Part shown: piece after piece, positions 55,190 to 61,932 of the stretch | How the letters are laid out: each line of letters begins with the position of its first letter | Numbering within the stretch: the stretch's first letter is position 1 | Assembly: GCF_029227855.1 (NCBI RefSeq) | Contig: NZ_CP074356.1 | Strand: one strand, 5' to 3' | Origin: Escherichia coli | GTDB lineage: Bacteria; Pseudomonadota; Gammaproteobacteria; Enterobacterales; Enterobacteriaceae | DNA: 64,000 nucleotides | Translations under genes and position numbers: made by a program | Notes under the pieces: generated by a model | Told to the model about the DNA's origin: nothing | The model's input: the letters and a program-made list of their open reading frames with translations, nothing else | Database searches by the model: none

Positions 55190-55397
55190 CATCACGAAAT
55201 ACCAAATACCACTCTTTCTACGGTCTATGCCTTTATTTTCTTTTATTAGAGAAGATTTTAATTTTATTTTATCAACTTGTTAATCATTACACCTCTATTT
55301 ATATTTTCCCCCACTCCCCATTCTCCCTGACAATTTTCTTGTGGAACAAAGTGTTATTTAAGAAACAAGCAAATCATTCTGTCTCTTTAGACAAATT

Positions 55398-55444
55398 TTG
55401 ACATCAAACATGATCTTTTTCGCTATATGTGTAAGTATATAGCG
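55398..55444 (+). promoter_or_regulatory. Candidate promoter (-35 TTGACA at 55398-55403) with overlapping ModE-type operator palindrome CGCTATAT-N8-ATATAGCG (55421-55444)
   Basis: Palindrome fits the ModE consensus as I recall it (CGnTATATA-N6-TATATAnCG) at 17 of 18 specified positions; lies 25 bp upstream of the ATG of the first island gene. Confidence 0.6.
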
Positions 55445-55468
55445 GTTTTAATTATCAGGATATTACTT

Positions 55469-56491
55469 ATGTCACTAACCAGACGGAGGTTTACACAGAT
55501 TCTTGCGTCGACATTGTTCCTGCATCATCTGCCGTCCTTTGCACTATCAGTCAAATTCTGGGCCTCACTGACGCTTCCCGAAGCCCAAAACATTACACGC
55601 ATCGTCAGCGCAGGCGCGCCCGCCGATTTACTATTGCTGGCTGTCGCGCCAGAAAAAATGGTCGGTTTTTCCTCTTTTGATTTTGCCCGTCAGGCATTAA
55701 TTCCATTGCCAAAGCACATTCGCCAGTTCCCCAGGCTGGGACGACTCGCCGGGCGCGCCAGCACACTCTCGCTGGAAGGGCTTATGGCGTTACATCCCGA
55801 TTTGGTCGTTGATTGCGGCAATACGGATGAAACCTGGATCTCCCAGGCACGGCAGGTTAGCGAACAGACACAAATACCCTGGTTATTGCTTAACGGGAAA
55901 CTGGAACAATCAGCAGAACAGTTAACAACGCTTGGCAAAACGTTAGGCGAAGAGCACCGCACCGCAGAACAAGCCAATCTCGCCAGCCGCTTCGTTGGTG
56001 AAGCTCAGGCATTCGCCACCTCACCCGCCGCTAACCTCAGCTTTTATGCTGCGCGCGGTCCTCGAGGGCTGGAAACGGGCTTACAGGGTTCGTTGCATAC
56101 CGAGGCGGCGGAATTATTAGGTTTGCACAACGTCGCGCAAATAGCCGATCGCCACGGTCTGACACAGGTTTCCATGGAAAATCTCCTGCGCTGGCAGCCG
56201 GATATTATTCTGGTTCAGGAGGCCGTTACTGCAGATTTTATTCGTCGTGATCCTCTCTGGCAGGGCGTGAAAGCGGTTGCGGAACAACGCATCTTATTTT
56301 TAAGTGGCCTGCCCTTTGGCTGGCTGGATGCCCCGCCGGGAATCAACCGTCTTCTGGGATTACGCAGACTTCACGCCTGGCTGGATCCCGCCATCAATCG
56401 CCAGTTTAAAAGTGACATGCAGCATTACGCCCAACTGTTCTGGCATTGCCTATTAAGTGACGCCGACTATCAAAAATTGGTGGCGAGCTAA
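55469..56491 (+). CDS. Periplasmic substrate-binding protein, TroA/FecB/BtuF-like (class III), with twin-arginine signal
   Basis: MSLTRRRFTQILASTLF... signal with RRRF motif; ~340 aa; architecture of metal-chelate/cobalamin binding proteins; ORF track version starts 14 codons upstream. Confidence 0.8.
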   Translation: MSLTRRRFTQILASTLFLHHLPSFALSVKFWASLTLPEAQNITRIVSAGAPADLLLLAVAPEKMVGFSSFDFARQALIPLPKHIRQFPRLGRLAGRASTLSLEGLMALHPDLVVDCGNTDETWISQARQVSEQTQIPWLLLNGKLEQSAEQLTTLGKTLGEEHRTAEQANLASRFVGEAQAFATSPAANLSFYAARGPRGLETGLQGSLHTEAAELLGLHNVAQIADRHGLTQVSMENLLRWQPDIILVQEAVTADFIRRDPLWQGVKAVAEQRILFLSGLPFGWLDAPPGINRLLGLRRLHAWLDPAINRQFKSDMQHYAQLFWHCLLSDADYQKLVAS

Positions 56492-57471
56492 TGAGAACCG
56501 TAAACGGATGTATTTTGCTGCTGGCAGCTATCAGTATCACTTTTGCCGCCGTAAGTGGGGCTTATCATCTCGATATACAGCAACTGCTGGCGCTCATTCT
56601 TCGTCAAGAAAATGTTCCTGTGCAGGAACAAATTGTCTTCTGGCAAATCCGCGTGCCGCGTATTCTTGCTGCGCTGTTTCTGGGCGCGGCGCTGGCAGGG
56701 GCCGGAACCACCTATCAGGGAATGTTCCGTAATCCCTTAGTGTCACCGGATATTTTAGGCGTCTCCGCCGGTGCCGGACTTGGTGCCTGCGCGGCAATCC
56801 TGTGGGGATTATCCATTGTTTACATCCAGCTGTACGCATTTTGCGGCGGGCTGATGGTGGTCGCGGGCGTCTGGTTGATTACGCGTCGGGTGACCCGCCA
56901 CGATCCGATCTTAACCCTGGTGCTGGTAGGCATTGCGTTAGGAACGTTGTGCGGAGCGGGGATATCGCTAATAAAAACGCTGGCCGATCCTTACACCCAG
57001 TTACCGTCAATTACCTTCTGGTTGCTGGGGGGGCTGTCCACCGTGACCTTACGCGATCTCTGCTATGCTGCACCGATCATTCTCATAGGCTCCTTGCCCC
57101 TGTTTTTTCTCCGCTGGCGTATGAATTTACTCACGCTTTCCGACGACGAAGCCCGTTCGCTGGGACTGAACGTGACACGTCTGCGCTTTGGATTAATTGT
57201 CTGCGCCACACTAATCACCGCCAGCACGGTAGCAATAGCGGGCATAATTGGTTGGGTCGGCCTGGTCGTTCCGCACATTGCCCGCTTGTTGACCGGTCAT
57301 AACCATCAGCAGCTGTTGCCCATGGCAATGTGTACTGGCGCGATTCTGCTCCTGCTTACCGATACGCTGGCACGCAGCATTGGAACAACAGAAATCCCAC
57401 TTGGCATTCTGACCGCTTTTGTTGGTGCACCGTTTTTCCTGTTTTTGTTGTTACGCGGAGGTCGCCAGTGA
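56491..57471 (+). CDS. ABC transporter permease, FecCD/BtuC family
   Basis: 326 aa polytopic membrane ORF whose start overlaps the upstream stop; glycine-rich TM segments typical of FecCD permeases. Confidence 0.82.
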   Translation: MRTVNGCILLLAAISITFAAVSGAYHLDIQQLLALILRQENVPVQEQIVFWQIRVPRILAALFLGAALAGAGTTYQGMFRNPLVSPDILGVSAGAGLGACAAILWGLSIVYIQLYAFCGGLMVVAGVWLITRRVTRHDPILTLVLVGIALGTLCGAGISLIKTLADPYTQLPSITFWLLGGLSTVTLRDLCYAAPIILIGSLPLFFLRWRMNLLTLSDDEARSLGLNVTRLRFGLIVCATLITASTVAIAGIIGWVGLVVPHIARLLTGHNHQQLLPMAMCTGAILLLLTDTLARSIGTTEIPLGILTAFVGAPFFLFLLLRGGRQ

Positions 57472-59899: not shown

Positions 59900-59924
59900 T
59901 TCTTTGTTAAACGGAATTTATTCT

Positions 59925-61895
59925 ATGAGACTCAAAAAACGTTATCTCTGCACAGCATTATCACTTGCCTTTACCCAGCAAGCCGTAGCGGCTCAGGAGA
60001 GCGACTCGCTGACCGTATGGTCCAGTCCGGTATCATCGACGACGACCACCATTCTCGATCAACCCACCATGAAGGCCCTGGATAAACAGAATGTCGCTCA
60101 GGCATTAAGTGTCGTCCCCGGCGTGGTGCTGCAAAAGTCAGGCAGCCGCAACGAAGAACAGGTAAAAGTTCGTGGCTTTGATAGTCGGCAGGTGCCGGTC
60201 TATTTCGACGGTGTGCCCATTTATGTTCCCTATGACGGCAACCTCGATCTGGCGCGGATTCTGACCAACAATCTGGGGGCAGTCGAAGTTTCCAAAGGGT
60301 ATTCGTCGCTGCTTCAGGGGCCTAATCAGATGGGCGGAGCCATTAATATCACCACCCAGAAGCCAACAAAACCTCTGGAAGCAAATCTGGGATATCGCCA
60401 GGGATGGAGCCGTAGCCAGGACAATGCCTACGATATGCATGCTTCATTTGCCGCCAGCAGCGATCTGGGGTATTTGCAAGTCAGCGGTAGCCAGCTAAAG
60501 CAGGATTTTCTCGGCCTGCCGCATGGTGTAAATAATGATATTGCAGGCAAACACGGCAAGATGATTAATTCATCGGCTGATGATAAACGCGGCATTGTGA
60601 AGCTCGGTTTTACACCACGCGAAAACGATGAATACACATTGACTTACATTAAGCAGGATGGTGAAAAAGATAACCCGCCATACAGTGGAAATAGTGGTCA
60701 AAAATCACGCTACTGGCAGTGGCCAGAGTATGACAAAGAAAGTTTTTATTATCAGGGAACGACCCAACTAAACGATCGTTTTACCCTGAAAAGTCGGCTG
60801 TATCGCGACACCTTTGAAAATACGCTAATGATGTACAACTCGCTGGCTGATTTGAAAAATAAAAAAGGCAGCTACAGCCATTATTCCGATTACAGCGACG
60901 GTGCCGGGTTACAACTGGCAGCCGATGTGCGTGAAAACGATCTGTTGTCGTTTGCCGTTAACTGGAAAGATGACGTACACCGGGAAAAAGGTGCGCCGCA
61001 CGCCGCTTACGATCGCTATGAAGATCGTACCTGGTCGCTCGCCAGTGAATATCAATGGGCTGCTGCCGATAATGTCGATGTCGTGGCTGGAATCAGCTAT
61101 GACTGGCGCGATAGCGTAGAAGCGAAAAAACATGAGAAAGATGGCAGCATCACCCATTATGACGACAACAATCAGTCAGCTTTTAACTGGCAGGTGATGG
61201 GGAAATACCACTTTGCCAATGAAGACACGCTGGCGCTTTCGTACTATGACCGCACACGCTTTCCGACGCTGAAAGAACGCTATACCACGTCCAAACCTGC
61301 GTATAACCAGATAGCGATTGTTAACCCGCAGCTCAAGCCGGAACGCGCGCGCGGGGTGGATTTAACCTGGAATGGTGCCTTCACGCACGACTGGGGGTTT
61401 GAGGTCAGCGTTTACTATAACCGGGTGAGTGATGCCATCCTCTCGCACAATATCGATGCCGATACCATTCAAAATCAGAACAGCGGCACGGTGGATTACA
61501 GCGGTCTGGATGCCGGTATTAAGGGGAAAATCAGCAATATACTGGATGTAGGATTGAGCTACGCCCTGATCCACGCTGACGCCAAACGCAAAGACATCGG
61601 CAAGATAACCGAACTGCCAACGCAGACAATGACCGCATGGATGACTCTCAAACCGTGGGAGCCGTTAAGCGTAACGCTGTCGGAAGAGGCGCGTTCCTCC
61701 AGCTACAGCAACAGTGACGGTTCACAAAAAGCCGCCGGTTTTGCGGTGACCCACATTCGAGCCGATTACACCTTAGGTCATGGCTTCAGCGTCAATGCGT
61801 CGGTCAATAACCTGTTTGATACCCAATATGCCTACAGTGAAGGGTTTATTGAAGAAGGTCGCAATTTCTGGGCAGGTATCGAGTATACGTTCTGA
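59925..61895 (+). CDS. TonB-dependent outer membrane receptor (BtuB-sized, ~656 aa)
   Basis: Signal peptide MRLKKRYLCTALSLAFTQQAVAAQE, TonB box DSLTVWSS, plug then barrel, C-terminal aromatic ...GIEYTF; ORF track version starts 7 codons upstream. Confidence 0.85.
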   Translation: MRLKKRYLCTALSLAFTQQAVAAQESDSLTVWSSPVSSTTTTILDQPTMKALDKQNVAQALSVVPGVVLQKSGSRNEEQVKVRGFDSRQVPVYFDGVPIYVPYDGNLDLARILTNNLGAVEVSKGYSSLLQGPNQMGGAINITTQKPTKPLEANLGYRQGWSRSQDNAYDMHASFAASSDLGYLQVSGSQLKQDFLGLPHGVNNDIAGKHGKMINSSADDKRGIVKLGFTPRENDEYTLTYIKQDGEKDNPPYSGNSGQKSRYWQWPEYDKESFYYQGTTQLNDRFTLKSRLYRDTFENTLMMYNSLADLKNKKGSYSHYSDYSDGAGLQLAADVRENDLLSFAVNWKDDVHREKGAPHAAYDRYEDRTWSLASEYQWAAADNVDVVAGISYDWRDSVEAKKHEKDGSITHYDDNNQSAFNWQVMGKYHFANEDTLALSYYDRTRFPTLKERYTTSKPAYNQIAIVNPQLKPERARGVDLTWNGAFTHDWGFEVSVYYNRVSDAILSHNIDADTIQNQNSGTVDYSGLDAGIKGKISNILDVGLSYALIHADAKRKDIGKITELPTQTMTAWMTLKPWEPLSVTLSEEARSSSYSNSDGSQKAAGFAVTHIRADYTLGHGFSVNASVNNLFDTQYAYSEGFIEEGRNFWAGIEYTF

Positions 61896-61902
61896 TGTGA
61901 AA

Positions 61903-61932
61903 GCGGATAGCGGCATCTGTATCGCTATCCGC
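61903..61932. terminator. Bidirectional terminator hairpin between the island receptor gene and ymgE
   Basis: GCGGATAGCG-gcatctgtat-CGCTATCCGC perfect 10 bp stem. Confidence 0.55.

Follow-up and report, generated by a model that had tools for sequence, protein, structure and literature searches.

Six co-directional genes between treA and ymgE in Escherichia coli (assembly GCF_029227855.1, contig NZ_CP074356.1) very probably constitute a molybdate-repressed operon for the TonB-dependent acquisition of molybdenum, and possibly of tungsten. The genes lie in a 64-kb stretch of this contig, referred to here as the window, whose numbering is used throughout unless another locus is named. They encode a class III binding protein, the permease and ATPase of a type II ATP-binding cassette (ABC) importer, a methyltransferase dependent on S-adenosylmethionine (SAM), the phosphoribosyltransferase-like protein ModD, and a TonB-dependent receptor. 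We base the assignment on this gene content and the operon structure, on a conserved ModE-type operator that matches the one at modA, on the similarity of the importer to MolBC, and on the association of both the receptor family and ModD with molybdenum or tungsten (Mo/W) genes, all of which were observed. An earlier note on this DNA had proposed Mo/W uptake by a single transcription unit behind a ModE-type operator. Both proposals are supported by the comparison with the modA operator, the presence of the box across genera and the Mo/W contexts of the receptor homologues. The note's description of six co-directional genes between treA and ymgE also held up, with open reading frames (ORFs) at or near the expected positions.

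In the mechanism that we propose, ModE-molybdate would bind the palindrome over the promoter/start region when molybdate is sufficient and repress transcription, as at modA; when molybdate is low, the operon would be expressed. The 656-aa receptor, energised by TonB, would then move a Mo/W species through the outer membrane, the exported binding protein would capture it in the periplasm, and the MolB2C2-like type II ABC importer would move it into the cytoplasm, where the methyltransferase and ModD, both cytoplasmic, would act downstream. Free molybdate or tungstate appears to be the simplest candidate cargo, because distant receptor homologues are paired with TupA/ModA-type oxyanion-binding proteins. 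Only tentatively would we go further and suggest that the receptor represents a new Mo/W-dedicated family of TonB-dependent receptors, and that a bulkier imported form is converted by the methyltransferase and ModD, releasing usable molybdenum.

The ModE-Type Operator

The ModE operator pattern CGnTATAT-N8-ATATAnCG, tested over the promoter/start region, was found at positions 55421–55444, where the palindrome scan identified the sequence CGCTATAT-GTGTAAGT-ATATAGCG. This palindrome, CGCTATAT-N8-ATATAGCG, has no mismatches and is the sole match in the window; for a looser scan allowing up to two mismatches, 0.16 matches would be expected by chance. The K-12 modA operator is CGTTATAT-TGTCGCCT-ACATAACG. 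The two operators share identical half-sites and an 8-nt spacer, and they lie at similar distances from the start codon, the centre being 36.5 nt ahead of the first ATG of the binding-protein gene in one case and 31.5 nt ahead of the modA ATG in the other. A TTGACA on the + strand at 55398–55403, read from the sequence, is a candidate −35 hexamer, in which case the −10 region would fall within the left half of the operator. Such geometry is consistent with binding of ModE-molybdate at 55421–55444 and with repression of the genes downstream.

A ModD-anchored search, using one genome per species of the Genome Taxonomy Database (GTDB), yielded 72 loci, which were scanned together with the loci obtained from protein look-ups. 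In these 1.44 Mb of related loci there were 92 sites with at most two mismatches, 82 of which were located within 150 nt upstream of a binding-protein (49), receptor (26), methyltransferase (4) or ModD (3) gene. The box preceded the binding-protein gene in 47 of the 51 transporter-carrying loci. A second box was found ahead of the receptor gene in 25 of the 51, and these were exactly the loci in which the preceding spacer was at least 98 nt long (in Proteus, Providencia, Morganella, Pectobacterium, a Serratia and Shewanella). A single box serves all six genes in E. coli and Citrobacter, where the spacer before the receptor gene is 25–36 nt.

All six ORFs are intact and lie on the + strand; in gene order, the first two junctions are overlaps of 1 and 4 nt, the third is a gap of 9 nt, the fourth again a 4-nt overlap and the last a gap of 25 nt. 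Junctions of this size leave no space for promoters inside the operon in this genome. Families were assigned with NCBIfam and precomputed Pfam annotations; besides ModD, no protein of the cluster reached the cut-off of any substrate-specific NCBIfam model, and a comparison with the PADLOC defence models returned a generic methyltransferase match only.

The Importer

The first gene of the operon (55469–56491) encodes a class III binding protein of 340 aa (Peripla_BP_2) with a twin-arginine translocation (Tat) signal. Its ORF opens at 55427; we placed the start at 55469, which gives the Tat-type N-terminus MSLTRRRF and has an AGGA 8 nt upstream, and this is also the start chosen by RefSeq in O157:H7. 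The RR motif is conserved throughout the full-length orthologues. The permease (56491–57471; 326 aa) belongs to the FecCD family of type II ABC importers, and the ATPase (57468–58226; 252 aa) begins at a GTG that overlaps the permease stop codon.

Among proteins of solved structure, the best relative of the permease was H. influenzae HI1471 (MolB; E = 5.9e-65, 43% identity over 313 residues), compared with E values of 2e-50 for FhuB, 3.6e-48 for HmuU and 1.1e-41 for BtuC. Similarly, the best single-domain solved relative of the ATPase was HI1470 (MolC; E = 1.2e-35). By these comparisons, the permease and ATPase are closer to MolB and MolC than to their counterparts in other type II importers. 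MolBC-A is a molybdate importer, its MolA component binds both molybdate and tungstate, and molB transcription drops upon addition of molybdate (PMC4031551). In H. influenzae, as here, the importer genes have modD (HI1473) as a neighbour (PMC3928620).

The Receptor and Its Family

The last gene of the operon (59925–61895) encodes a protein of 656 aa with the features of a TonB-dependent transporter: a signal peptide followed by the TonB-box-like sequence DSLTVWSS, a plug and a barrel (PF07715 and PF00593 are recorded for its orthologues), and a C-terminal YTF. A search of solved structures gave no close match to the receptor, the best one covering the plug only (E = 1e-6). Orthologues with 50–83% identity occur in the same operon across the Enterobacterales. 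Among 1.84 billion representative proteins, 394 relatives were found at E ≤ 1e-30, and the family includes members in E. coli O157:H7, Proteus, Providencia, Morganella, Citrobacter, Shewanella and Pseudomonas aeruginosa.

The P. aeruginosa homologue is 45% identical to the E. coli receptor and was present on more than 1,000 contigs, in a locus with neither the importer nor either enzyme. It has a ModE-like palindrome 20–40 nt upstream and adjoins moaA and narIJHG. We also looked up four relatives at 33–36% identity (loci L084 to L087). L084 consists of genes for a ModE-domain regulator, a TupB-like permease, an ATPase, a TupA-like protein, the receptor, a small Oxidored_molyb-like protein and a second TupA-like protein. 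L085 resembles the E. coli operon, with a binding protein, FecCD permease, ATPase, methyltransferase and receptor, and has weak boxes. In L086 the receptor is accompanied by a binding protein and a di-haem oxidoreductase (DHOR). L087 encodes a ModE-repressor-domain protein, a TupA-like protein, the receptor, a binding protein, a DHOR, ModA (above the cut-off), a porin, and moaC, moaD and moaE, and has two-mismatch boxes ahead of the TupA-like and receptor genes. Thus, each receptor homologue examined was tied to molybdenum by either regulation or gene context. That Mo/W genes accompany the family in several independent architectures is the most compelling indication that the receptor carries a Mo/W species.

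Two further kinds of protein were seen next to receptor homologues. Small proteins of 171–182 aa with an Oxidored_molyb domain are encoded directly 3′ of the receptor gene in P. aeruginosa (L003, 11977–12525), where the protein has a Sec-type rather than a Tat-type signal, and likewise 3′ of the homologue in the unrelated metagenomic TupABC-type locus (L084, 8152–8667). Such a protein may be a periplasmic partner of the receptor. The DHOR genes (PF06537) are found at 6139–7512 in L086 and at 10188–11519 in L087; in both loci an extra binding protein is also encoded 3′ of the receptor homologue. The presence of DHOR beside these distant homologues may point to redox processing of the imported species in the periplasm.

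The Methyltransferase and ModD

The fifth gene (59045–59899; 284 aa) encodes a quinolinate-phosphoribosyltransferase-like protein that scores 501.6 bits over the full length of TIGR01334, against a cut-off of 178.85, and is thus ModD; on the nadC model it reaches 135.4, below the cut-off of 198.4. In the description of TIGR01334, the function of ModD is given as unknown. Relative to the quinolinate phosphoribosyltransferase (QAPRTase) of Mycobacterium tuberculosis, the equivalents of R105 (as Lys), T138, R139, K140, H161, R162, E201 and D222 are kept, while an invariant Phe stands in place of K172 and an Ala in place of D173. Since the residues that bind phosphoribosyl pyrophosphate (PRPP) and carboxylate are kept but K172 and D173 are replaced, ModD is probably a functional phosphoribosyltransferase that acts on something other than quinolinate. 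NadC has the same fold and differs from ModD in these two replaced positions. The modD gene was always found in molybdenum contexts and not in NAD contexts: it is located 3′ of modABC-like genes with a perfect box in front in Yersinia alsatica, faces modABC with boxes in between in a genome of the Alcaligenaceae, precedes modBC in Treponema, and adjoins anfHD and a gene for a Mop protein in Acerihabitans.

The methyltransferase (58236–59048; 270 aa) has the Rossmann-like fold and GxGxG SAM motif of class I enzymes. Its sequence is highly conserved, with a mean column identity of 63%, and its structure is predicted with good confidence (predicted local distance difference test, 86.8). The gene accompanies the type II importer also in loci without ModD. 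Methyltransferase–ModD pairs are also found without transporter genes, in Edwardsiella hoshinae, Edwardsiella anguillarum, Edwardsiella piscicida, Edwardsiella ictaluri and Leminorella, and in the first three of these a ModE box precedes the methyltransferase gene. The genes 3′ of the pair in E. hoshinae (L029, 11643–14432) encode a PaaA-like ThiF protein, a 2-oxoglutarate-Fe(II) oxygenase and an EamA exporter. We considered these genes as candidates for chelator biosynthesis and rejected them, as they belong to a pantocin-type cluster that appears unrelated to molybdenum.

Weighing the Evidence and Alternative Explanations

Several observations weigh against a molybdate-repressed molybdenum uptake operon. 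E. coli already has ModABC, so that the physiological need for the operon is not obvious, and nothing explains why an importer of oxyanions should be accompanied by enzymes of the methyltransferase and phosphoribosyltransferase-like kinds. In O157:H7 OK1, the methyltransferase gene is a pseudogene with an internal stop (L001, 7135–7947). The binding protein is only a distant relative of MolA: a profile made from 13 orthologues matched MolA (3psa) with E = 4.7e-15 in the C-terminal half only (1.7e-7 for the single sequence), whereas the uncharacterised structure 4pag in the Protein Data Bank was matched over the full length with E = 5.6e-45, and is thus far closer. The ligand of MolA is therefore not transferable to this protein. 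Moreover, the binding of molybdate to MolA is weak, with a dissociation constant of about 100 µM as quoted in PMC3928620, so that the native ligand of the whole subfamily may or may not be molybdate itself. On the regulatory side, repression rather than activation is read from the geometry of the operator, and a scan for consensus sigma-70 promoters called none at this site.

Alternatively, the cargo may be an organic Mo/W complex, such as a foreign chelate, a thiomolybdate or a cofactor-like compound, with the methyltransferase and ModD modifying the ligand inside the cytoplasm and thereby releasing or converting the metal. This idea, which was also raised in the earlier note, is a variant of molybdenum acquisition in which the link to the metal is kept, and we regard it as possible, if rather doubtful. 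It is favoured by the usual pairing of TonB-dependent receptors and type II importers with bulky ligands, by the inheritance of the methyltransferase with the importer even without ModD, and by the weak binding of free molybdate by MolA (PMC3928620). The retained PRPP- and carboxylate-binding residues suggest that ModD probably acts on an N-heterocyclic acid, and the periplasmic DHOR 3′ of some distant receptor homologues likewise hints at processing. However, the cluster contains no biosynthetic or export genes, the P. aeruginosa receptor manages without importer or enzymes, and the distant homologues are paired with TupA/ModA-type proteins, which bind free oxyanions. The methyltransferase–ModD pairs of Edwardsiella and Leminorella are located away from transporters, under a box of their own, and a fold search with the methyltransferase gave no substrate clue.

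A different view of the regulation is that the ModE site activates the operon, which would then serve for low-affinity, high-capacity uptake when molybdate is plentiful, or for handling a surplus of Mo/W or of toxic analogues, the methyltransferase perhaps detoxifying co-imported oxyanions such as tellurite or selenite. ModE does activate some E. coli promoters, for example that of moaA, and no clear −10 and −35 elements were called at the box. MolBC-A, furthermore, plays a part in uptake only when external molybdate is high (PMC4031551). Nevertheless, we consider an activating role unlikely, because the box is positioned relative to the start like the repressing operator of modA rather than upstream of a promoter, and because molybdate represses molB in H. 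influenzae (PMC4031551). Moreover, an outer-membrane receptor coupled to an energy source serves for scavenging, not for dealing with a surplus.

Uptake of an iron siderophore or haem, to which the RefSeq names “iron ABC transporter substrate-binding protein” and “TonB-dependent siderophore receptor” would point, appears very improbable. The architecture is that of the Fec, Fhu, Fep and Hmu systems, and there are generic matches to siderophore, haem and ferric-citrate models, but every score against an iron family was far below its cut-off, including those of the binding protein on the Fe(3+)-dicitrate binding-protein model (31.7; cut-off 320) and of the receptor on TonB-siderophor (127; cut-off 223.5). 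The best match to a Fur box upstream of the operon had 6 mismatches in 19 positions, no better than in shuffled sequences, and the same was true of nine orthologous promoters; the regulatory element that is conserved is the ModE box. Still harder to credit is the salvage of a corrinoid or other cofactor by a BtuB/BtuFCD-like route, followed by methylation and phosphoribosylation by analogy with CobT: the permease matches BtuC models, the best NCBIfam match of the methyltransferase is the corrinoid-protein-associated CpaM, and ModD is phosphoribosyltransferase-like, but the scores fall well short (242.6 and 197 on the BtuC models, cut-offs 461 and 334; 80.8 on TonB-B12, cut-off 599.7; 43.6 on CpaM, cut-off 180), an Rfam scan of 53000–64000 at E ≤ 1 returned no element, including cobalamin and molybdenum cofactor (Moco) riboswitches, and the regulation and genomic contexts indicate molybdenum.

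Relationship to Known Systems

Among the closest described relatives of the predicted molybdenum operon is the MolBC-A locus of H. influenzae (HI1470–HI1472) with modD (HI1473). The two share a type II importer, a class III binding protein, an adjacent modD and, for molB, repression by molybdate, and the placement of modD beside a MolABC-type importer is thus already known (PMC3928620). In contrast, PMC4031551 and PMC3928620 report neither an outer-membrane receptor nor a methyltransferase for the H. influenzae locus, and the E. coli operon has both. Furthermore, MolBC-A is described as a low-affinity system, and the binding protein of the present operon is not a clear orthologue of MolA. With E. 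coli modABC the operon shares the operator half-sites, the 8-nt spacer, a similar distance to the start and, presumably, intracellular molybdate as the signal; modABC differs in that its importer is of type I and works with a binding protein of the ModA type, and in lacking both enzymes and an outer-membrane component of its own.

The plan of a TonB-dependent receptor, a class III binding protein and a type II importer is also that of BtuB–BtuFCD, and the earlier note had described the transport genes as a BtuB/BtuFCD-like set. The permease is FecCD/BtuC-like, but the importer is closest to MolBC and not to BtuCD (E = 1e-41), and the receptor has no specific likeness to BtuB. The locus differs from BtuB–BtuFCD in its BtuB and BtuC scores, which are far below the cut-offs, in the lack of a B12 riboswitch, and in the arrangement of its genes in one predicted ModE-controlled operon. 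The Fec, Fhu, Fep and Hmu systems likewise share the overall plan and differ in regulator and genomic context, the present locus having no Fur box and only sub-cut-off scores. A Tat-type signal on the binding protein is also found in FhuD. TonB-dependent receptors for metals other than iron include ZnuD (zinc), OprC/NosA (copper), FrpB4 (nickel) and the lanthanide receptors. These share with the present system the concept of an energy-coupled outer-membrane receptor under the control of the scarce metal's own regulator, but have no known sequence relationship to this receptor beyond the superfamily.

The overall plan of receptor, class III binding protein, type II importer and metal-specific repressor is therefore of a known kind, whereas the metal, the receptor family and the embedded pair of enzymes are new. 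The earlier note knew of no characterised E. coli equivalent, and none was found in the literature. A search of full texts gave no description of the cluster or of a TonB-dependent receptor for molybdenum, with the limit that most subscription journals, as well as databases like RegPrecise, were outside its coverage and an earlier computational mention is possible. A 2021 review and a 2025 paper name IcmP as the sole outer-membrane partner for molybdate, and no TonB-dependent receptor.

Passage of scarce molybdate across the outer membrane is usually ascribed to porins, and the operon supplies a candidate family of TonB-dependent receptors for this step. It also puts ModD and a conserved methyltransferase into a defined pathway; if the conversion of a bulkier form should prove true, ModD would gain a biochemical role for the first time. 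In the inflamed gut, enterobacterial growth is driven by molybdoenzymes (in nitrate, formate, dimethyl sulfoxide and trimethylamine N-oxide respiration), and a second, energy-coupled route for molybdenum that only 39% of E. coli genomes carry could thus be a fitness factor.

Distribution and History of the Locus

The block is flanked by treA, with its stop at 55132, and by ymgE (61945–62199, − strand). A megablast search with 55100–62000 against 5,426 complete E. coli genomes recovered the block in full from 2,139 (39%), including O157:H7; the remaining genomes match only from 61872 onward. As the earlier note had said, the block is absent from K-12: comparison of the treA–ymgE interval showed the arrangement treA–ycgY–ymgE in E. 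coli HS, and K-12-type genomes match only from 61872. In these genomes, the final 24 nt of the receptor gene (61872–61895) persist upstream of the ymgE terminator, and this remnant in HS and other K-12-type genomes is the scar of a loss of the cluster.

The view of the block as an accessory acquisition was not borne out. It adjoins treA in E. albertii, at least nine Citrobacter loci, Raoultella, some Enterobacter and Intestinirhabdus, with ymgE on its other side in E. albertii and Citrobacter; its GC content is host-like. We considered a horizontally acquired island and rejected it in view of the synteny across genera and the receptor remnant in K-12-type genomes. Because the same site is occupied in other genera and the remnant is present, the locus is ancestral at treA–ymgE, and the K-12 arrangement is a deletion or replacement. 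The six-gene order itself is found in Escherichia, Citrobacter, Raoultella, Serratia, Pectobacterium, Erwinia, Proteus, Providencia and Morganella, and the operon occurs without ModD in Shewanella and Edwardsiella tarda.

Two hairpins, read from the sequence, lie at the ends of the block. A terminator-like hairpin after treA, GCAATGCCA ... TGGCATTGC followed by a T-rich run (55149–55190, + strand), marks the upstream boundary of the transcription unit. A second one, GCGGATAGC-N12-GCTATCCGC (61903–61932), between the convergent receptor and ymgE genes, is their probable shared terminator, and falls within the stretch from 61872 that is common to K-12-type genomes. The last ≈80 nt of treA (55056–55133) are only 76% identical to those of HS, compared with 98% for the rest of the TreA protein; the border of the two locus types therefore extends into the 3′ end of treA, and they differ in the C-terminal tail of TreA.

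A few loci had peculiarities of their own. In O157:H7 OK1, treA is frameshifted (L001, 2348–4032), and the five operon genes other than the methyltransferase gene are intact. A 3.2-kb contig (L009) from a metagenome-assembled genome of Collinsella sp. encodes ATPase, methyltransferase and ModD proteins 98–99% identical to those of E. coli, and its assignment to Collinsella is most likely a binning error. Affinibrenneria salicis has two copies of the whole cluster ≈770 kb apart on one scaffold (L049 and L050), with identical match coordinates and identities, reflecting either a large duplication or an assembly artefact. In Proteus mirabilis (L005, 12058–21950), the operon sits directly beside a type III secretion gene cluster.

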